The notes beneath the pieces are model-generated. The model did no database searches and had not been told where the DNA came from. It saw nothing but the letters and a program-made list of their open reading frames with translations. Shown piece by piece: positions 7,470 to 14,801 of a stretch of 64,000 nucleotides of DNA. Within the stretch, counting starts at the first letter, position 1, and each line of letters starts with the position of its first letter. A program made the translations under genes and the position numbers. This DNA is from Fidelibacterota bacterium (GTDB taxonomy: Bacteria > Fidelibacterota > UBA8477 > JABMPR01): contig JAIPJM010000003.1 of assembly GCA_021734255.1 (NCBI GenBank), forward strand, positions 61,517 to 125,516, written 5' to 3'.

Positions 7470-10331
7470 CTATTCGGTGGAATTGTTCTTCAAATAGAAC
7501 AACTCCTTGCTTGGGGCTAAGGGGCGGCCCATCCAGAGCGGTCTTCTTAAGCCATCCGGGTGTGTCTCACGTTCTTTTGCCCAGTCATTCCACTTCTTGA
7601 AGTGAGCAAATGACTTTTCGGTATCTACAAAGACGTCACCATATTTTTCATCTGCTTTGGGCACACTGATGGTCACTTTTTGCAGCCAGCAATGGGCACC
7701 TGATACTGGATCCGGTTGGACGGCATGAGTGATGTTCTGATGAACCCCTCCATCTCGCCACCAGACACGCTGAGTGTCAGGATCGTCGGTCTTCCAGGGT
7801 TCGACGCCAGTGAGTGTCTCCATGCGCCACTTGCCTGTGCCTTCTTGACTGATCTTCACTGTATTGGTCATAAATTTATTGCCCTGGTCTTGCTGACGAC
7901 GCCAACGACCAATATGATGGGAACAGGCAACCACGCCAGGTTTAATTGCCTCTGTTACCCAAACTTTGTCCACGAACCAACCGATCTCTGTCTCAATTTT
8001 GAGCAATTCACCCGTTTTTACTCCCAGTTTTTTCGCATCAAGGGTATTGATCCAGATGGGGTTCCTGTGGGCGATCTCTGTCAGCCATTTGGCATTGGCA
8101 GAGCGACTGTGAATGTGGGTCGGAAGTCTGAAATTGGGTAACAGCACACATTCATGTTTGTCCTCATCCATATGATCCTTATGAACATGGGATTTGATAT
8201 AACCCGGTATGGCCTGATCCGGATAACCAAAATCCACCATGGTCTGGGAAAAGAACTCCTGTTTCCTGGAGGGTGTCGGAAATCCTGCATATTTCTTCCC
8301 TTTGTCAACAACACCAACCGCTTTACCGTCCTTTATCAGTGTTCCGGTTGCGGTCTCTGTGGCTCCTTCTGCGTCCATCTCAGATAGGGGCGTCTTGTTC
8401 TTCTCGTAGAGGCTGGGAACCACATTGTACGCGCCATACTTCCGCATATACTCAAGAGCGGTGAGACCCTCCTTTTCCGCTGTCTCCGTTAGGCCCTCTG
8501 TATGTTCGAAGATGTACTGGTAATATTCATCAATGTTGATCTTCTCGCCCTCGCGATAGGGGCTCATAAAGTGCTTCCTGATACCCAGATCATTGTCCTT
8601 ATCGATACGCCAGGATAGTTCGATCCAGAATTCATCCTCTTCCCAGACCTGGCCAGGGTTCACTTCGTAGGTGTACTCTACTGGCCTGCCTTCCCTTCTG
8701 GCTTGTTCTCTCAGAACGGGCTGACGATAGGCGATCCAGACCCCGGAATGGGTCTCATATGAATTGAGGTCATGGCGTTCGGGACCGTGTCCCATGGGAA
8801 GTACATAGTCTGCGAAAAATGCTGTCTCATTCCAGGTAGGCGTCAGTGCAATGTGGCAGCCAACTTTCTCTGGGTCAGACAGCATCTCGATCCAGGAAAA
8901 TCCATCGGGATAGGTCCAGACCGGGTTAAAGACTCGCGTAAAGTAAACATCCATGGTCCCACGACCATCCTTGATCAGGTGAGGCAGGATCTGACTCATT
9001 TCGAAGTGATTCAGAGTGTATTCCTGTGGAAAGTGGAGTTCATTCCAGACAGGGGGACCGGGAGGTACGTCAAAAAATTCAGGGTGGAATTTATTCCAGG
9101 CGCTGGGTGAGGTGCCACCGGGGGTTCCAACCGATCCTGTGAGGACATTCAGAAAATGCAGGGTTCTTGATACCTGCCAGCCGCCCAGGTTTCCGATGGA
9201 AGCGCCGCGCCATACATGACTTGACAACTGCGAGCCGGCGCCAGCAATAACATGAGCGACCTCAACGATCTGCTCTGCTTCAATACCGGCTTCGGATGCT
9301 GCATACTCAGGGGTGAACTCGGAGTAGACATCGATCAGAGCTGACACGAAATTGTCAAAAGTAAGGTCAAGATCGGGATGCTCAGCCTTGAGATATTCAT
9401 CCCAATTGACCCAGGTTTCCATATACTCACGATCATACAAGCCTTCTTGAAGAATGATACGGGCGATGGCCAGAAACACAGCTGCCTCAGATCCCGGGTA
9501 TGTTGGCATCCAGTAGTCGGCATGACTGGCTGTATTGGAGAGGCGGGGATCCAGCACGATAAGCTTGGCGCCCTTGAGCTTGCCTTCCATGATACGCTGA
9601 GCATGGGGATTGAAATAGTGACCGGTTTCAAGATGCGAACTGGCCAGGATGATAACCTTGGCGTTGGTGTGATCCGGAGATGGTCGATCGAATTTATGCC
9701 ACATGGCATATCCGGCACGTGCACCTGCTGAACAAATATTGGTGTGGGAATTATGTCCATCAACTCCCCAGGCCTTGAGAACACGTTCCATATAGCCTTC
9801 ATGTCCAGGACGACCGACATGGTAAACAACCTTATCCCGGCGCTCAGCTTTCAAAGATTTCTGGATCTTGGCTGCGATCTCATCCAGAGCCTGCTCCCAG
9901 GAAATGGTCTCCCACTTCCCTTCTCCACGCTCACCCGCCCGTTTCAGAGGATACATGATACGTTCAGTATCATTCACCTGGTTAATGGTTGCAGGACCTT
10001 TGGCACAGTTCCTTCCGCGGGAACCTGGGTGGTGAGGATTTCCCTCAAATTTACGGATCTTGCCGTCTTCTTTGTCGATATATGCCAACAAACCACAGGC
10101 TGATTCGCAATTGAAACAGGTGGTCGGAACGATACTATAGCGTCGCTCTTTTTTTACGGGCCAGGATTTGGGATCCAATTCTGCAAAATCTTCCCACTGA
10201 TCCGGGGGGGGATATTTATACAGGGGTCGCGGTCCTTCAAGAGCATAGACCTCTGAAGTGTCTTCATGTTGGGATATCCTGGGGATCACCCCGATCCCTT
10301 CGGCAAATTTTTCTATCCATGAACGTTTCAT
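7470..10331 (-). CDS. Molybdopterin (bis-MGD) oxidoreductase catalytic subunit, DMSO-reductase/CISM family. No Tat signal, so predicted cytoplasm-facing (SoeA-like / PsrA-PhsA-TtrA-like).
   Basis: 953 aa. N-terminal [4Fe-4S] motif CFNCESACG...C about 75 aa from the start. Candidate Mo-ligand region HTNICSAGARAGY. Main frame has an in-frame TGA 9 codons upstream of the ATG, so no hidden RR leader. Partner FeS/NrfD gene upstream. Confidence 0.85.
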   Translation of the reverse strand: MKRSWIEKFAEGIGVIPRISQHEDTSEVYALEGPRPLYKYPPPDQWEDFAELDPKSWPVKKERRYSIVPTTCFNCESACGLLAYIDKEDGKIRKFEGNPHHPGSRGRNCAKGPATINQVNDTERIMYPLKRAGERGEGKWETISWEQALDEIAAKIQKSLKAERRDKVVYHVGRPGHEGYMERVLKAWGVDGHNSHTNICSAGARAGYAMWHKFDRPSPDHTNAKVIILASSHLETGHYFNPHAQRIMEGKLKGAKLIVLDPRLSNTASHADYWMPTYPGSEAAVFLAIARIILQEGLYDREYMETWVNWDEYLKAEHPDLDLTFDNFVSALIDVYSEFTPEYAASEAGIEAEQIVEVAHVIAGAGSQLSSHVWRGASIGNLGGWQVSRTLHFLNVLTGSVGTPGGTSPSAWNKFHPEFFDVPPGPPVWNELHFPQEYTLNHFEMSQILPHLIKDGRGTMDVYFTRVFNPVWTYPDGFSWIEMLSDPEKVGCHIALTPTWNETAFFADYVLPMGHGPERHDLNSYETHSGVWIAYRQPVLREQARREGRPVEYTYEVNPGQVWEEDEFWIELSWRIDKDNDLGIRKHFMSPYREGEKINIDEYYQYIFEHTEGLTETAEKEGLTALEYMRKYGAYNVVPSLYEKNKTPLSEMDAEGATETATGTLIKDGKAVGVVDKGKKYAGFPTPSRKQEFFSQTMVDFGYPDQAIPGYIKSHVHKDHMDEDKHECVLLPNFRLPTHIHSRSANAKWLTEIAHRNPIWINTLDAKKLGVKTGELLKIETEIGWFVDKVWVTEAIKPGVVACSHHIGRWRRQQDQGNKFMTNTVKISQEGTGKWRMETLTGVEPWKTDDPDTQRVWWRDGGVHQNITHAVQPDPVSGAHCWLQKVTISVPKADEKYGDVFVDTEKSFAHFKKWNDWAKERETHPDGLRRPLWMGRPLAPSKELFYLKNNSTE

Positions 10332-10384
10332 AGTCTGATCCCCTCGATCTTCTTTTCAGATATATAATGTTGAATAAGGTTCAT
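10328..10384 (-). CDS. Candidate 18-codon upstream ORF (MNLIQHYISEKKIEGIRL), translationally coupled to the molybdoenzyme gene
   Basis: Strong SD TAGGAGGA 6 nt upstream of its ATG. The SD overlaps the stop of the FeS/NrfD gene. Its TGA overlaps the ATG of the 953-aa gene (ATGA). Confidence 0.25.
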   Translation of the reverse strand: MNLIQHYISEKKIEGIRL

Positions 10385-10394
10385 CTGTATCCTC

Positions 10395-12005
10395 CTAGCT
10401 CAACGGAATCAACTGGGGTACCCGGATCCTCACAAACTCGGTGAGATAAATACCGACAGCAGCCAGGCCAGCAGCGATGAAGACCATGAGATCCGTATCC
10501 AGAGTATAAAGCATAGCCAGCGGAACAATATTTCCCATGAGTATTCCCAGATAGAAATAGCGGCTATAATAGCCCCCGGTCATGAGTTTATGGGCACGTT
10601 TGGTATCCGATGTGGCATGCGGGCTCAGGAATTCAAGTACGAGAAGAGCCAGATTCAGAGAAACGGCAACCTTGAGTACCGTGAGGACCAGTCCACCTCC
10701 ATCACTGGCCAGGAAAATCCAACCTGCCGCACCAGCGATCAGAGCATGGATCAGCATGTGAACAGGAGCCAGATGATTGGCCCACAGATCTCTTCCTTTA
10801 GCCTGAGCCAGCAGGAAGGCCGTATAAATAGCCGTCATGACCGCAATTGGGGCCGTTAGATTGATCAGCAACTTGCGAAAGCCCAGGTCGAAAAGGTTAT
10901 CAAGCAGGAGCAGGGTTACAACACCACCAAAGGCTGTGATCAAGTATCCACCGCGAACCAGCCAGCTGGACCAGTTGGGTCTCAGTAGTACATAGGGGAA
11001 GCGATCCGGTCGATCCAGATCTTTCACCAACAAACCGCCAGTGAACAGCATGAATACCAGGGTCCCAATAGCAGCAGAAAACTCAAGGCTTGAATTTGAG
11101 ACACCACCGAACCATGATAACAGGGCCATGATCAGCATGAGCCCCGTCGCCACAGATTTGGTCCAGATGTAAGCCGGGACTTCCCAGCCCCAAAGCACAC
11201 CTTTGGCAGGTGAGTCGTAGACACGGGTTGCTTTGCTGGATGCCTGTTCTTTTAATTCTGCCAGCACATTATCGATAGCTCTTTGATCCGGTTGGGTGCC
11301 ATTTTTCGCATGGGATTCCATGGCCATCTGTACCAGGAGATCGGCTTGGGCCTCTGTGCTTGCAGGGTCACTGGCATGTTTGGCAAAATGACCAACACCA
11401 CTGGACTGCTCACTCCAAATATAATTATCGCGACGATCGGTCTGGGTCGGTGTCAGCATATCTGAATCACCTTCCACATACCAGAGATTGGGGGTGGTCC
11501 CCTTTTCTGGTTTTCTGGTGACCACGTGCTCCATAGCAACAAAAGATGATATTTTTGAATGCGGATCATCCAGATCCCCTGAAACGATGGCCTCCGTCGG
11601 ACAGATCACAACACATGCTGGTTCATATCCGCCATCGATCCTGTGGGCACAGTAATTACACTTGGCCGCCGTATTGTCATTGGGGTCGATATAGAGTGCA
11701 TCGTAGGGACAAGCCTGCATACAGGACTTGCAGCCGATACAACGCGCATTATCGAAATCTACGATTCCGTCCATACGTGTATACAGGGCAGACGTGGGAC
11801 AGATCTCCGTGCAGGGAGCATCTTCACAATGATTGCAACGGTGGACTGAGAAGGAACGACTGGTGTCCGGAAAGACACCTTTTTCGATGTATTTCACATG
11901 GGTGCGATTGACACCGATGGCCACATCGTGTTCAGATTTACAGGCAACCGTACAGGCATGACAGCCAATACATTTACGGTTGTCTATGACAAAGCCATAA
12001 TTCAT
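10395..12005 (-). CDS. Fused electron-transfer/membrane-anchor subunit: N-terminal 4x[4Fe-4S] ferredoxin domain (PsrB/SoeB-like) plus C-terminal NrfD/PsrC/SoeC-like polytopic membrane domain
   Basis: Four Cys clusters (CIGCHACTVACKSEH, CNHCEDAPCTEICP, CIGCKSCMQACP, CNYCAHRIDGG..CVVICP) in the first 150 aa. A hydrophilic linker follows, then about 8 TM helices. No signal peptide. Confidence 0.8.
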   Translation of the reverse strand: MNYGFVIDNRKCIGCHACTVACKSEHDVAIGVNRTHVKYIEKGVFPDTSRSFSVHRCNHCEDAPCTEICPTSALYTRMDGIVDFDNARCIGCKSCMQACPYDALYIDPNDNTAAKCNYCAHRIDGGYEPACVVICPTEAIVSGDLDDPHSKISSFVAMEHVVTRKPEKGTTPNLWYVEGDSDMLTPTQTDRRDNYIWSEQSSGVGHFAKHASDPASTEAQADLLVQMAMESHAKNGTQPDQRAIDNVLAELKEQASSKATRVYDSPAKGVLWGWEVPAYIWTKSVATGLMLIMALLSWFGGVSNSSLEFSAAIGTLVFMLFTGGLLVKDLDRPDRFPYVLLRPNWSSWLVRGGYLITAFGGVVTLLLLDNLFDLGFRKLLINLTAPIAVMTAIYTAFLLAQAKGRDLWANHLAPVHMLIHALIAGAAGWIFLASDGGGLVLTVLKVAVSLNLALLVLEFLSPHATSDTKRAHKLMTGGYYSRYFYLGILMGNIVPLAMLYTLDTDLMVFIAAGLAAVGIYLTEFVRIRVPQLIPLS

Positions 12006-12059: not shown

Positions 12060-13232
12060 TCAGGAAGCCTGTTGAGCAGCATATGCAGACGCTGCACATT
12101 CGTTCTTCCCAAGGTCCATGGTGCTCTGCTCATCATCCTCTGGATTCAGCCAACCGGCATTCACCTTTCTGATCTCAGCATAGACATCAGGCTGCTTACG
12201 TATGTTTTCCAGGATGAATTTTTGGAAATCCTTATCATTATCGATCCCATAAATGGACGCATTACCCTCAATGATCTTCCCCAGTGATTTTTCAAAAACC
12301 AGGTCTTCATTTGCTTCGCTCCACTGGATATAATGACCGGGAAGCACCTGAAGGTTGGGATCCATCTTTTTGATCTTCTGGTTTACTGTTTCATAAAGCA
12401 TGGTGGCCCATTCGACTGCTTTACCGCCTAGATCTGGTCGCCCCAGCGATATGATGAAAATCGTATCTCCAGATATCACATATTTCCCGTCAATGATGTA
12501 GCAGGTGCTGCCAGGTGTATGGCCCGGCGTATGAACGATCCTGATATCAGGGCCTTTGGGAGAAGCCTTGTAGGTCTCGCCGTCCTGAATAGAAACATAT
12601 TCGAAACTGGCACCGAGAAAATCACCGGCATGTGCATGAACCACTGCCCCTGTTTTTTCTGCCAGGAAGCGACTGCCACTGATATAATCAGCCTGAAGGT
12701 GTGTTTCGAAAGTTTGGGTTAGCTTGCAATCATGCGCTTCCGCAAATTGAGAGTAAAACTCCATATTCCTCGAAGGATCAAAGAGAGTCAGCTCACCTTC
12801 AGAGATCAAACCATAATTCAGAGAGGCTTTTCCAGGCCGAACGAACTGCCACAGTTCGTAGGTATCCGCAGTATCGTTAATTCTTTTGTCTGTCAACATA
12901 TTGCCCCAGGAAACGATTCCCTGGGTTAGATACCCTACATCTTCAAATCCATGGGCGATCAGGATCTCGCCTACATATTTCGCTGAGCCTTCCTTCGCGC
13001 AGACGACCCTCACCTTTTTATCACGCGGGACCTTGGCTACCGATGCTTCCTCTTCTTCCATGAAGTCAAAATAAGGGACATTGATCATATCCACTTCAAC
13101 GGGACTTTCCACTTTGAAGCGGTTGAAGTCCTCTTCATTTCTTACATCCAGAATGAGGAGTTCTTCCGCTTGGGTGAGCCAGTCAAAAAGTTGCTTTGCT
13201 GAGTAGGGAGTAAGCATGTAATTACCTCGCAA
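12060..13232 (-). CDS. Rhodanese-domain / MBL-fold fusion protein, persulfide dioxygenase (ETHE1/Blh)-like
   Basis: N-terminal rhodanese (LILDVRNEEDF...VVCAKEGSAKY). C-terminal MBL fold aligning to ETHE1 (THLQADYISGS vs THCHADHITGS; HTPGHTPGS; SGDTIF). The ETHE1 Fe ligands (His, His, Asp) are conserved. Confidence 0.75.
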   Translation of the reverse strand: MRGNYMLTPYSAKQLFDWLTQAEELLILDVRNEEDFNRFKVESPVEVDMINVPYFDFMEEEEASVAKVPRDKKVRVVCAKEGSAKYVGEILIAHGFEDVGYLTQGIVSWGNMLTDKRINDTADTYELWQFVRPGKASLNYGLISEGELTLFDPSRNMEFYSQFAEAHDCKLTQTFETHLQADYISGSRFLAEKTGAVVHAHAGDFLGASFEYVSIQDGETYKASPKGPDIRIVHTPGHTPGSTCYIIDGKYVISGDTIFIISLGRPDLGGKAVEWATMLYETVNQKIKKMDPNLQVLPGHYIQWSEANEDLVFEKSLGKIIEGNASIYGIDNDKDFQKFILENIRKQPDVYAEIRKVNAGWLNPEDDEQSTMDLGKNECAASAYAAQQAS

Positions 13233-13478
13233 TCATTTCATACGCTGGACATAGAATATCTTATCGAGTCCAACTTCGTCTATCTGTAAAACCTTTTGTC
13301 CGGAGGCTCTGCACCAGGCCTTGATATCTGATTCTGCTCAGGGATGAGCAGCTGTAATTTTCAGTATCTCACCTATCTGCATCATTCTTAATTGTTGGTT
13401 CGAACGAATCACCGGCATTCCCATGCCGCAGTCCCCCAGATCTATGGATACATCCCATTTGACGTCCATATGCTTCAT
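13233..13478 (-). pseudogene. TusA-like sulfur-carrier paralog with in-frame TGA (13338-13340) and altered active-site motif (CPxP replaced by CGMGMP)
   Basis: Translation MKHMDVKWDVSIDLGDCGMGMPVIRSNQQLRMMQIGEILKITAAHP*AESDIKAWCRASGQKVLQIDEVGLDKIFYVQRMK aligns along its whole length with the neighbouring TusA (…DPGSKNDISAWTSRTGHELLG…FVYFIKKK). The stop sits where Gly/Ala is expected. The extended frame ends exactly at the start of the next gene. Confidence 0.5.
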
Positions 13479-13482
13479 TGTG

Positions 13483-13998
13483 CTAAATGAAAAGTGATAT
13501 ATCAGCGTCTGCCGCAAACTCCAGGAAGGTTGCTGCACCGCCAAGTTCAACGCCATCGATGAACTGATCCTGTGTAAATCCGAAGACATCCATGGTCATC
13601 TGACAGCCAATCAGTCTGACACCCAGATCGATGCACATTTCACGCAGCTCTTCCACCGTCGCGACACCTTTTTTCGCAAAGGTCTTCTTCATGAAGGATG
13701 TTGCCATGGCCTCATAGCCTGGAACATTGTTGCCCAGGATATTGGGGATGGGCCACTCAAAATTCTGAAATCCCTTTGGCCCAAATGGCATCTTCATGGG
13801 CATGGCAGGATTGGTCTGTGGCGCCACCTTGGCATCAATCTTTTTGTTCAGCAGGGGCAGCCCATAGAAGGTAAAGAATACAGCAACTTCCATATCCATG
13901 GCGGCTGCTGTCGAGGCTAGTAAAAATGGCGGATAAGCCCAGTCCAGAGTTCCCTGGGAGGCGATCATTGCCAAGCGCTTGGGTCTGTTTTCACTCAT
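13483..13998 (-). CDS. DsrE/DsrF-like (DsrE2-type) sulfur-relay family protein
   Basis: 171 aa. Conserved LIGCQMTMDVFG Cys motif typical of the DsrE/DsrF/DsrH-like family. Adjacent to TusA. Confidence 0.7.
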   Translation of the reverse strand: MSENRPKRLAMIASQGTLDWAYPPFLLASTAAAMDMEVAVFFTFYGLPLLNKKIDAKVAPQTNPAMPMKMPFGPKGFQNFEWPIPNILGNNVPGYEAMATSFMKKTFAKKGVATVEELREMCIDLGVRLIGCQMTMDVFGFTQDQFIDGVELGGAATFLEFAADADISLFI

Positions 13999-14009
13999 GG
14001 ATCACCCGC

Positions 14010-14246
14010 TCACTTCTTCTTGATGAAGTAAACGAACCCTTCATCATTTTCATCAGTACCAAGTAGTTCATGGCCTGTACGGGACGTCCATGCAGAAATA
14101 TCATTTTTTGAACCTGGATCAGTCGCTACCATTTTTAGAATTTGACCACTCTCCATAGCATCAATTGCCTTCTTGGTCTTGATCACGGGAAGAGGGCAAT
14201 TCAGTCCTTTGCAATCCAGTTCCTGATCCACATTAAATTCTGTCAT
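14010..14246 (-). CDS. tusA: TusA-like sulfurtransferase
   Basis: 78 aa with canonical LDCKGLNCPLPVIKTKKAI...TDPGS (CPxP motif). Confidence 0.85.
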   Translation of the reverse strand: MTEFNVDQELDCKGLNCPLPVIKTKKAIDAMESGQILKMVATDPGSKNDISAWTSRTGHELLGTDENDEGFVYFIKKK

Positions 14247-14596
14247 TTAGCTACTCCTTCTTTCTCCGGGAAAAGCTCCCCCAATTTGAATTCTCCAGCT
14301 TCCAATCCGATTTTGCATGAATTGACGCAATTTAAGATTTTCACGATCATATCACTGGCTAAAAAATAAAAAAATCGGGTGCCCTCACGCCTGGAGGCCA
14401 GAATGTTGCGTCTTTGCATGTAACGCAGATGCTGGGAAGTGATGGGCTGGGGGAGATCCAATTCACGTTGGATCTGTCCGACTGACTTTTCTTCTTCCTG
14501 CAAAAACTCAATGATCCGTAATCGTTCGGGATGCCCCAATGCTTTCAAGGTCTTGGAGGCTGATGCGAAAAATTCAGCTTTCTCGGTATCGGTCAT
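14243..14596 (-). CDS. ArsR/SmtB-family transcriptional regulator, SqrR/BigR-like candidate persulfide/redox sensor
   Basis: HTH region LKALGHPERLRIIEFLQEEEKSVGQIQRELDLPQPITSQHLRYM. C-terminal CVNSC pair. Start placed at MTDTEK (14594-14596), because the upstream direct repeats are likely the operator. The ORF track's longer start is 14632. Confidence 0.8.
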   Translation of the reverse strand: MTDTEKAEFFASASKTLKALGHPERLRIIEFLQEEEKSVGQIQRELDLPQPITSQHLRYMQRRNILASRREGTRFFYFLASDMIVKILNCVNSCKIGLEAGEFKLGELFPEKEGVAK

Positions 14597-14801
14597 GTTT
14601 TGTATCACCATTATTAAGACAATATTTGTCATAATATATAGTTTTCACTATATTTGTCAAGTTGAATATTTACACCTGTAGGGCAGCGGTCATGGCAATT
14701 GCTTTTAGCACCAAAAAATGTAGTTTGTCAGGTGTTTTACACCTTCTTTTATAGTAACCCATCCCCCATTAATTCATCAATAATGATATAATTTTTCAGG
14801 A
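14597..14801. promoter_or_regulatory. Divergent promoter region (regulator leftward, acnA rightward) with direct repeat TATTTGTCA x2 (14623-14631, 14651-14659) and near-palindrome GACAATATTTGTC
   Basis: Repeats seen directly, in an AT-rich interval between divergent genes. Candidate ArsR-family operator. Confidence 0.4.

Follow-up and report, generated by a model that had tools for sequence, protein, structure and literature searches.

The ArsR-family proteins that sense sulfane sulfur (cluster 4 of the sequence similarity network, SSN) are defined by one Cys in helix α2 and another near the C-terminal end of helix α5, between which an intraprotomer polysulfide bridge is formed (PMC10054925; PMC11672702). 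The characterised ArsR persulfide sensors co-localise with sulfurtransferase and rhodanese genes (PMC10054925). Here, a 64-kb stretch of DNA from a Candidatus Marinimicrobia genome (the window) was analysed, in which the gene for a 117-residue ArsR/SmtB-family regulator leads an operon encoding sulfur carriers and a Psr/Phs-like molybdoenzyme. The regulator lacks the α2/α5 Cys pair and carries a conserved Cys, C90, in the middle of α5, together with a conserved Lys, K86. With a probability that we put at about one half, this protein would be a homodimeric, sulfane-sulfur-responsive autorepressor of the psr-like operon, operating through a C90-based switch in α5. The regulator gene and the elements discussed with it are:

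14243-14596, minus strand: ArsR/SmtB-family regulator coding sequence (CDS), from Pfam, NCBIfam, homologue N-termini and an AlphaFold2 (AF2) model
14339-14341, minus strand: K86 codon
14315-14329, minus strand: codons C90-V-N-S-C94 in mid α5, from the sequence (C90, 14327-14329; C94, 14315-14317)
14633-14660, minus strand: sigma-70-type promoter of the arsR operon (TTGACA 14660-14655, 16-bp spacer, TATATT 14638-14633)
14634-14653, no strand: proposed operator, the 20-bp palindrome ATATA-N10-TATAT (ATATATAGTTTTCACTATAT, plus strand), between -35 and -10 and overlapping -10

The minus-strand open reading frame (ORF) extends from 14243 to 14632, and the start of the true CDS was set at the Met encoded at 14596 (N-terminus MTDTEK), because the N-termini of 21 homologues with 56-86% identity all begin there. 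The original prediction, made from the sequence letters, had given a span of 14243-14801 for the regulator together with its divergent promoter; the gene does lie within that span, the remainder of which (14597-14801) is the intergenic region common to arsR and the divergent acnA. An identical protein (P0001) is annotated from a Candidatus Marinimicrobia metagenome-assembled genome. The ArsR-family identity first proposed for this ORF was confirmed by Pfam HTH_5 (PF01022; 41.3 bits against a cut-off of 22) and NCBIfam NF033788 (75 bits against 55).

The regulator has the winged helix-turn-helix fold of the ArsR/SmtB superfamily, with its elements in the order α1-α2-α3-α4-β1-β2-α5. The AF2 model, which is of the monomer and was built on an alignment of 118 sequences, has canonical ArsR topology at a mean confidence (pLDDT) of 87.7; an earlier model from 21 sequences (pLDDT 62) had a wrong wing and was set aside. 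The predicted elements are α1 (residues 3-19), α2 (23-32), α3 (39-46), α4 (50-62), β1 (66-71), β2 (74-79), α5 (82-99) and a short helix (105-108), and the homologue alignment shows a C-terminal tail of 20 residues with a conserved G...FP motif. Foldseek matches to the model were ArsR proteins throughout, with TM-scores of ~0.65-0.71 alike for NolR, Rv0081, M. smegmatis SmtB, HlyU, SqrR, BigR and CzrA. NolR was both the top fold match and the first-ranked phmmer match (E = 2.8e-12). The reported likeness of the helix-turn-helix core to SqrR and BigR is thus correct as regards the fold, and is no closer than that to the other five proteins.

C90 and C94, the CVNSC motif of the original prediction, are indeed present in the middle of α5 in the model and are both invariant in the 21 close homologues. 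Conservation was counted over 59 distinct sequences of the TusA-linked regulator clade, from Bacteria and Poseidoniales archaea, for which the downstream TusA-DsrE2(-Psr) genes were confirmed in sampled loci and metagenome-derived members were assigned by similarity. C90 and K86 are each present in 58 of the 59 sequences. C94 is present in 31 and absent from 28, being Thr in most archaeal forms and Ser in L015, and in many archaeal forms C90 is the sole Cys of the whole protein. Since C90 and K86 are near-universal while C94 is not, the family comprises 1-Cys and 2-Cys forms built around a K-x3-C core, and the Cys pair is not the conserved unit. More widely, 93 of the 120 nearest 50%-identity cluster representatives (160 aa or shorter) carry C90, a second Cys follows at i+4 or i+5 in 61 of these 93, and an α2 Cys occurs in only one of the 120. 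In solved relatives position 90 is Ala, Thr, Leu or Gln. The genome-scan loci L023-L055, mostly CVC-type ArsR proteins picked up through an LKALGHP pattern, were left out as relatives. The sole orthologue with Ser90 and a retained C94 (ILNSISECQ) is L077, from metagenome contig Ga0066376_10073194; its near-twin L076 has CISEC, and the Ser90 of L077 would reflect either natural variation (C90S) or an error in sequencing.

The family was next aligned with the PDB-derived sequences of BigR, SqrR and two HlyU proteins. The α2 Cys of these sensors aligns with Glu30 of the regulator, a match also given by the HMMER alignment with HlyU, and the counterpart of their α5 Cys is Ile96, two residues past C94, so that the BigR/SqrR Cys pair is absent. 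Glu30 is kept in 52 of the 59 TusA-linked sequences and in all 97 sequences of the sister clade described below. The N-terminal sensing Cys had been thought to be replaced by Ser within EEEKSVGQI; however, this residue (Ser38) is Ser in BigR, SqrR and both HlyU proteins as well. Moreover, the ELCVGDL motif that had been quoted for BigR and SqrR is the α3 motif of SmtB-type metal sensors and does not belong to BigR/SqrR. Of the idea of a relocated sensing pair there remains the lack of the canonical α2/α5 pair and the presence of a conserved Cys in α5, but not a family-wide C94. Because the canonical pair is absent and α5 holds a conserved Cys, in a sulfur-trafficking context, a different sensing chemistry was a fair suggestion. 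CstR, which had been listed with the ArsR proteins, belongs to the CsoR family (PMC10054925).

The regulator reached neither the NCBIfam equivalog cut-off for BigR (54 bits against 155) nor that for TsoR (NF045707, Dbac_1936 type; 55.2 bits against 115), which its relatives fail too, and nothing usable was found in the literature on what TsoR/Dbac_1936 senses or on a 'BigR box'. SqrR, BigR, HlyU, SoxR and sHdrR resemble the regulator in fold (Foldseek TM ~0.65-0.69, 29-34% identity), and members of the SqrR/BigR group are, as the regulator would be, repressors beside sulfurtransferase, rhodanese and metallo-beta-lactamase (MBL)-type genes. The signal type (sulfane sulfur) and the output (release from a promoter-overlapping palindrome) are probably shared too. 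In the regulator, by contrast, the conserved α5 Cys precedes the position used by the known sensors by 6 residues, and the second Cys, which is optional, is at i+4 of the same helix; the known sensors bridge α2 and α5.

The promoter of the arsR operon was recovered by a promoter scan with 11/12 matches, and an alignment of upstream regions shows that it is conserved across Marinimicrobia loci. When palindromic words were enumerated without bias in 31 non-redundant orthologue upstream regions, from all lineages including archaea, ATATA-N10-TATAT was present in 22 of the 31, against 0.15 expected in Markov shuffles, and ATAT-N12-ATAT in 27. The box reads ATATAG-N8-CTATAT in the Marinimicrobia alignment and lies at -50 to -62 bp from the start codon in most lineages (at -82 to -106 in a few), and the copy at 14634-14653 is the only one in the window, where 0.07 would be expected. 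This box is two-fold symmetric, accompanies the regulator in both domains and overlaps the promoter, as would be expected of the operator of a dimeric autorepressor; it is read as the putative operator, to which the regulator is predicted to bind.

A direct repeat, TATTTGTCA, had previously been taken as the operator. The repeat exists, at 14623-14631 and 14651-14659 (28 bp apart), and extends to 13 nt with 12/13 matches; TATTTGTCA occurs three times in the window (0.69 expected), a count attained in 4 of 100 shuffles. The repeat is not conserved in relatives, where it falls to 7-9/13 matches at variable offsets of 28-31 bp. Each copy, moreover, is part of another element, as set out here with the second palindrome of the region:

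14651-14659, plus strand: second TATTTGTCA copy, formed by the right edge of the ATATA box and the -35 hexamer
14616-14632, no strand: second palindrome, ATGACAAATATTGTCTT (clade consensus GTGAC-N7-GTCAC), just downstream of -10 and around the likely transcription start

The first TATTTGTCA copy is the left half of this clade-specific second palindrome, and an operator function of the direct repeat is not supported. The near-palindrome GACAATATTTGTC that had been pointed out beside the repeat was verified as a perfect 5-3-5 palindrome (14618-14630), and it too is contained in the second palindrome. In Marinimicrobia loci the half-sites of the latter are conserved and its spacer is variable, and comparison of upstream regions showed it to be absent from archaeal and other lineages. 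GTGAC-N7-GTCAC was rejected as the family operator, being confined to the main Marinimicrobia clade and imperfect in its window copy; it could be the site of another factor or a 5'-terminal hairpin.

The operon reads arsR-tusA-dsrE2-(tusA-like)-rhd/MBL-psrBC-psrA. The regulator gene comes first, and its TGA stop overlaps the ATG of tusA (ATGA, 14243-14246). The genes that follow it are:

14010-14246, minus strand: TusA sulfur carrier (Pfam TusA, 90.2 bits; synteny), translationally coupled to arsR
13483-13998, minus strand: DsrE2-like sulfur carrier (Pfam DrsE_2, 161.6 bits; NCBIfam DsrE2, 209.3 bits against a cut-off of 210)
13233-13478, minus strand: second TusA-like ORF, with an in-frame TGA at 13338-13340
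12060-13232, minus strand: rhodanese/MBL fusion (Pfam and NCBIfam profiles)
7470-12005, minus strand: Psr/Phs-like molybdoenzyme genes (fused FeS/NrfD subunit, 10395-12005; catalytic subunit, 7470-10331)

The sulfurtransferase and rhodanese neighbours that mark the context of BigR/SqrR-type sensors are therefore found directly downstream, as TusA, DsrE2 and the rhodanese/MBL fusion, and they are kept across lineages. The operon with its leading regulator also occurs in the Marinimicrobia loci examined, in one divergent Neomarinimicrobiota member (L015), in the lineages of P0024 and P0028 and in Poseidoniales (Marine Group II). In the loci examined the regulator always stands beside TusA and DsrE2, and usually with the rhodanese/MBL and Psr-like genes as well. 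The Poseidoniales proteins (loci L016-L021, L069 and L080-L104) are ~69-76% (DsrE2) and ~65% (PsrA) identical to those of the window, and their contigs carry the archaeal neighbours Trm56, Pterin_bind and TraB. The occurrence of the whole operon in both Marinimicrobia and Poseidoniales, together with archaeal neighbour genes on the archaeal contigs, indicates an inter-domain transfer of operon, regulator and operator.

Autoregulation is supported by the position of arsR as first gene of the operon and by its ATGA overlap with tusA. In the repressing state, the dimer would bind ATATA-N10-TATAT between -35 and -10 and so occlude RNA polymerase. The sensor is predicted to be a reactive thiolate, that of C90 halfway along the dimerisation helix α5, rather than an α2/α5 pair, and K86, one helical turn before C90, probably lowers its pKa. 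Sulfane sulfur, as persulfide or polysulfide, would modify C90, with the co-encoded TusA/DsrE2/rhodanese relay as a possible donor. In the 2-Cys forms C94, at i+4 on the same helix face, could then resolve the adduct to an intrahelical tri- or tetrasulfide; a Cys pair at i,i+4 in a helix has poor geometry for a plain disulfide and good spacing for a longer bridge. In the 1-Cys forms, which include most Poseidoniales orthologues, the signal would be either a Cys persulfide or a C90-Sn-C90' link across the dimer axis, and the CzrA register does put the two-fold axis no more than about one residue from C90. A cluster of all four Cys of the dimer (C90, C94, C90' and C94') was considered and rejected, since homology with CzrA would put the two C94 residues at opposite ends of the antiparallel α5 helices, a long way from each other. 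Modification at α5 would lower the affinity for DNA and so derepress the operon, which is plausible because CzrA/SmtB-type sensors have their allosteric inter-subunit metal site on the same face. In addition, SAR406 phsA-homologue transcripts were detected only in the lowest-oxygen samples (PMC5596340), as would be expected of an operon induced when conditions are reducing and tend towards sulfidic, with reduced-sulfur species and not oxidants as the derepressing agents.

The origin of this site may be seen from the nearest large clade, composed of ArsR proteins of ~101 aa that end in HILxCIRxCD(M/L) and whose named members are annotated as Gemmatimonadota or Longimicrobiales (loci L056, L057, L059 and L061; proteins P0242, P0182, P0251 and ~95 others). 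Its motif, E-x-K-x2-H-x3-C-x3-C-D, is made up of Glu81 (95/97), Lys83 (96/97), His86 (89/97), Cys90 (97/97), Cys94 (97/97) and Asp95 (92/97), with Arg at position 92 in 96/97. The TusA-linked clade has S/N81, K86 and Q/K/R95 at the same positions, keeps C90 and sometimes keeps C94. The three sister members whose contigs were examined (P0242, P0182 and P0251) are each encoded directly upstream of an OEP-CzcB-RND efflux operon (CzcCBA-like). As a separate observation, sister locus L059 has ATAG-N8-CTAT between -35 and -10.

An ungapped HMMER alignment with CzrA was extended using the CzrA sequence and the numbering of its Zn ligands (D84 and H97), which places position 81 on D84 and H97 opposite position 94; the sister clade thus has an acidic residue where CzrA has D84. 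From 81 to 94 there are 13 residues, as there are from D84 to H97, matching the motif DxHx10Hx2(H/E) (PMC11672702). MAFFT moves the CzrA register by one residue, so the H97 equivalence holds to ±1. The sister clade probably represents a Cys-rich metal sensor of α5 type that has yet to be described, and the site of the regulator probably derives from the α5 inter-subunit metal site as a Cys-rich derivative; judged by these alignments, the TusA-linked clade has retained the thiols and lost the other metal ligands. A wider scenario can be drawn, in which an α5 metal site was turned into a 1-Cys or 2-Cys sulfane-sulfur switch (K86-C90 ± C94), perhaps charged by the TusA/DsrE2 relay, regulator, operator and operon moved together between Marinimicrobia and Poseidoniales, and the same repressor-operator pair works on sigma-70 and archaeal promoters. 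We offer this scenario tentatively and consider the odds to be somewhat against it.

Several observations weigh against a C90-based sulfane-sulfur switch. In the alignments, neither C90 nor C94 falls on a Cys of any characterised persulfide sensor, and the nearest large relatives look like metal sensors. As C94 is dispensable in about half of the orthologues and L077 has Ser90 with C94, a single chemistry need not hold family-wide. A mid-α5 Cys beside the hydrophobic stripe could owe its conservation to packing alone. Finally, the box is AT-rich: its right arm is the -10 element in bacteria and one arm may be a TATA box in archaea, so that its conservation could in part be promoter conservation.

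The sister clade makes it natural to ask whether C90, C94 and a ligand from the partner protomer would instead bind Cd, Cu(I), Zn, As(III) or a similar thiophilic metal or metalloid at a Cys-rich α5 site, with the metal causing derepression. This is favoured by the sister motif, invariant or nearly so, by the efflux operons downstream of the three members examined, and by the match of positions 81 and 94 to D84 and H97 at equal spacing; the NCBIfam name for the regulator, too, is only 'metalloregulator'. The non-Cys ligands, however, are lost from the TusA-linked clade, the 28 orthologues without C94 are left with one Cys per protomer, the operon has sulfur carriers and a Psr-like enzyme and no metal transporter, and the H97 equivalence carries its uncertainty of one residue; we consider a metal sensor an unlikely candidate. 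That C90 is merely structural at the dimer interface of a NolR-like repressor without a sensing site, with control exerted by protein level, by a factor at the second palindrome or by global regulation, is also rather unlikely. NolR, which is not known to have an inducer site, is the best match in both sequence and fold, C90 adjoins the α5 hydrophobic stripe in the AF2 model, and GTGAC-N7-GTCAC at the transcription start could serve another regulator. Against it stand a Cys90 found in 58/59 TusA-linked and 97/97 sister sequences where solved relatives have Ala, Thr, Leu or Gln, as well as the co-invariant Lys at i-4 and the recurrence of a Cys at i+4 or i+5 in 61 of the 93 C90-containing relatives.

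General thiol-redox or oxygen sensing, through a C90/C94 disulfide or a sulfenate that switches DNA binding in response to reactive oxygen species or disulfide stress, appears quite improbable. An i,i+4 intrahelical pair is poorly placed for a plain disulfide, and an intraprotomer disulfide is impossible in the 1-Cys forms. Cys-based H2O2-sensing ArsR proteins such as RexT do exist (PMC10054925), and expression of the operon does differ with oxygen (PMC5596340); yet a repressor released by oxidation predicts a rise with oxidants, and the transcripts were found only at the lowest oxygen (PMC5596340). The arrangement initially envisaged, a BigR/SqrR-type sensor with a relocated pair bound to the TATTTGTCA direct repeats, is very improbable. 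The repeat is real and mildly over-represented in the window, and the sulfur context does resemble the BigR and SqrR regulons. Against this stand the Ser shared with BigR, SqrR and HlyU at position 38, the Glu at the α2 Cys position, the lack of conservation of a repeat of which one copy is the -35 hexamer, and the palindromic form of the element conserved family-wide, which is what a dimer with two-fold symmetry would call for.

With respect to the remaining ArsR site classes, the CzrA/SmtB-type α5 motif DxHx10Hx2(H/E) is not present in the regulator, which has S81, M83, C94 and G97 in the ungapped register. Like CzrA and SmtB, it would have its sensing residues on the α5 dimerisation helix, with C94 at the place of Zn ligand H97 in that register; it differs from them in lacking the His/Asp ligands and in having no metal transporter in its operon. 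The α3/α3N class (ArsR CVC, CadC, SmtB ELCVGDL), with a CxC or a Cys at the start of α3, does not apply, as the regulator reads K37-S38-V39 there; close homologues have S, T or N at position 38, and Cys is found there only sporadically. Nor does the regulator belong to the As(III) class of AfArsR (SSN cluster 5), in which three Cys in or after α5 give trigonal coordination (class description in PMC10054925), since it has only two Cys, many orthologues having one, and the operon contains no arsenic genes. NolR of Sinorhizobium resembles the regulator as an ArsR type without the classical sensor sites, and differs from it in having Ala at the C90 position and a different genomic context. Fold, type of regulation and context are familiar, and the predicted sensing site is unlike the described ArsR sites (α3, α3N, α4C, α5, α5C, three-Cys α5 arsenic and α2/α5 pair). 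Neither the PDB, searched by sequence with residue-by-residue inspection of the best five alignments, nor NCBIfam, nor the searchable literature yielded a solved or characterised protein of this kind.

Two analogies of logic may be drawn with other families. Between the copper sensor CsoR and the persulfide sensor CstR, a metal-site scaffold keeps its thiols and loses other ligands in passing from a metal-efflux to a sulfur context; CsoR is a four-helix bundle of unrelated fold. OhrR likewise occurs in 1-Cys and 2-Cys versions within one family, as here, on a MarR fold and with no homology implied. Both analogies draw on general background, on PMC10054925 and on a preprint (bioRxiv 10.1101/2021.07.25.453692).

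The psr-like locus is the basis for the sulfur metabolism proposed for Marinimicrobia (PMC8359478). Indeed, the Psr/Phs-like operon is the main basis for assigning a sulfur-cycle role to the uncultured Marinimicrobia (SAR406) that are abundant in oxygen-minimum zones, and its substrate and direction are still debated (PMC8359478). A regulator of 117 aa is tractable, and to learn what makes it leave DNA would be to learn, without cultivation, which physiological signal the operon answers to. To the known sensors it would add a site of persulfide type that is distinct from both the SqrR/BigR α2/α5 pair and the CsoR-type pair. The natural 1-Cys and 2-Cys forms, with a sister clade that probably senses metal, make the family well suited to studying the evolution of inducer specificity on the ArsR scaffold, and an operator conserved across a bacterial-archaeal transfer would be a small, clean example of a regulatory module crossing domains.

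On the acnA side of the intergenic region, a block at 14700-14745 (TAGTTTGTnAGGTG), aligned in L001-L014, is conserved across Marinimicrobia and reads CACCTnACAAACTAAGCTTTTG ... CAAAATCAATYGCCATAAG in arsR orientation. It includes a third TTTGTCA and, in the window only, a hairpin (AGGTGTTTTACACCT, 14730-14744). The block is probably the acnA promoter or leader. Membership of acnA in the regulon was considered and rejected, as the linkage is limited to Marinimicrobia and the nearby block looks like acnA's own promoter. A search of the intergenic region and operon against Rfam gave no matches.

Within the operon, the TGA of the second TusA-like ORF is found at one common position in the window and seven Marinimicrobia loci (...AAHP*AESDIKAWCRASGQK...), with conservation continuing in the same frame beyond it. 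With Cys substituted for the stop, the product passes the Pfam TusA model, at 44.9 bits against 28.6. A 20-nt stretch beginning 17 nt after the TGA (AAGGCCTGGTGCAGAGCCTC) is identical at synonymous sites and folds as a small bulged hairpin. The ORF is thus a candidate for a selenocysteine-containing TusA-family protein with an element resembling a selenocysteine insertion sequence (SECIS); there is no tRNA-Sec in the window, and the ORF is absent from the P0024 lineage (L064).

The metallo-beta-lactamase-fold enzymes, persulfide dioxygenases among them, share an HxHxDH motif. At the expected position the rhodanese/MBL fusion reads ETHLQADYISG, so its metal site may be altered and a persulfide-dioxygenase function is not to be assumed; its match to the Blh model is weak (27.8 bits against 625). 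The Psr/Phs-like catalytic subunit begins MKRSWIEKFAEGIGV... and has no twin-arginine motif. The lack of this motif and the fusion of the FeS subunit to an NrfD-type membrane subunit suggest that the active site may be on the cytoplasmic side, an arrangement that agrees better with a cytoplasmic TusA/DsrE2/rhodanese relay than a periplasmic polysulfide reductase would. The Psr/Phs-like genes reached no NCBIfam equivalog cut-off, the best being PhsA (201 against 694).

In one relative from a hydrothermal-vent metagenome (L006/L007) the operon ends after DsrE2 and is followed directly by a 100-aa remnant, 81% identical to PsrA, beyond which lie sodium/sulfate-symporter-family and Usp genes. This arrangement looks like a deletion derivative that has kept the regulator-TusA-DsrE2 core.

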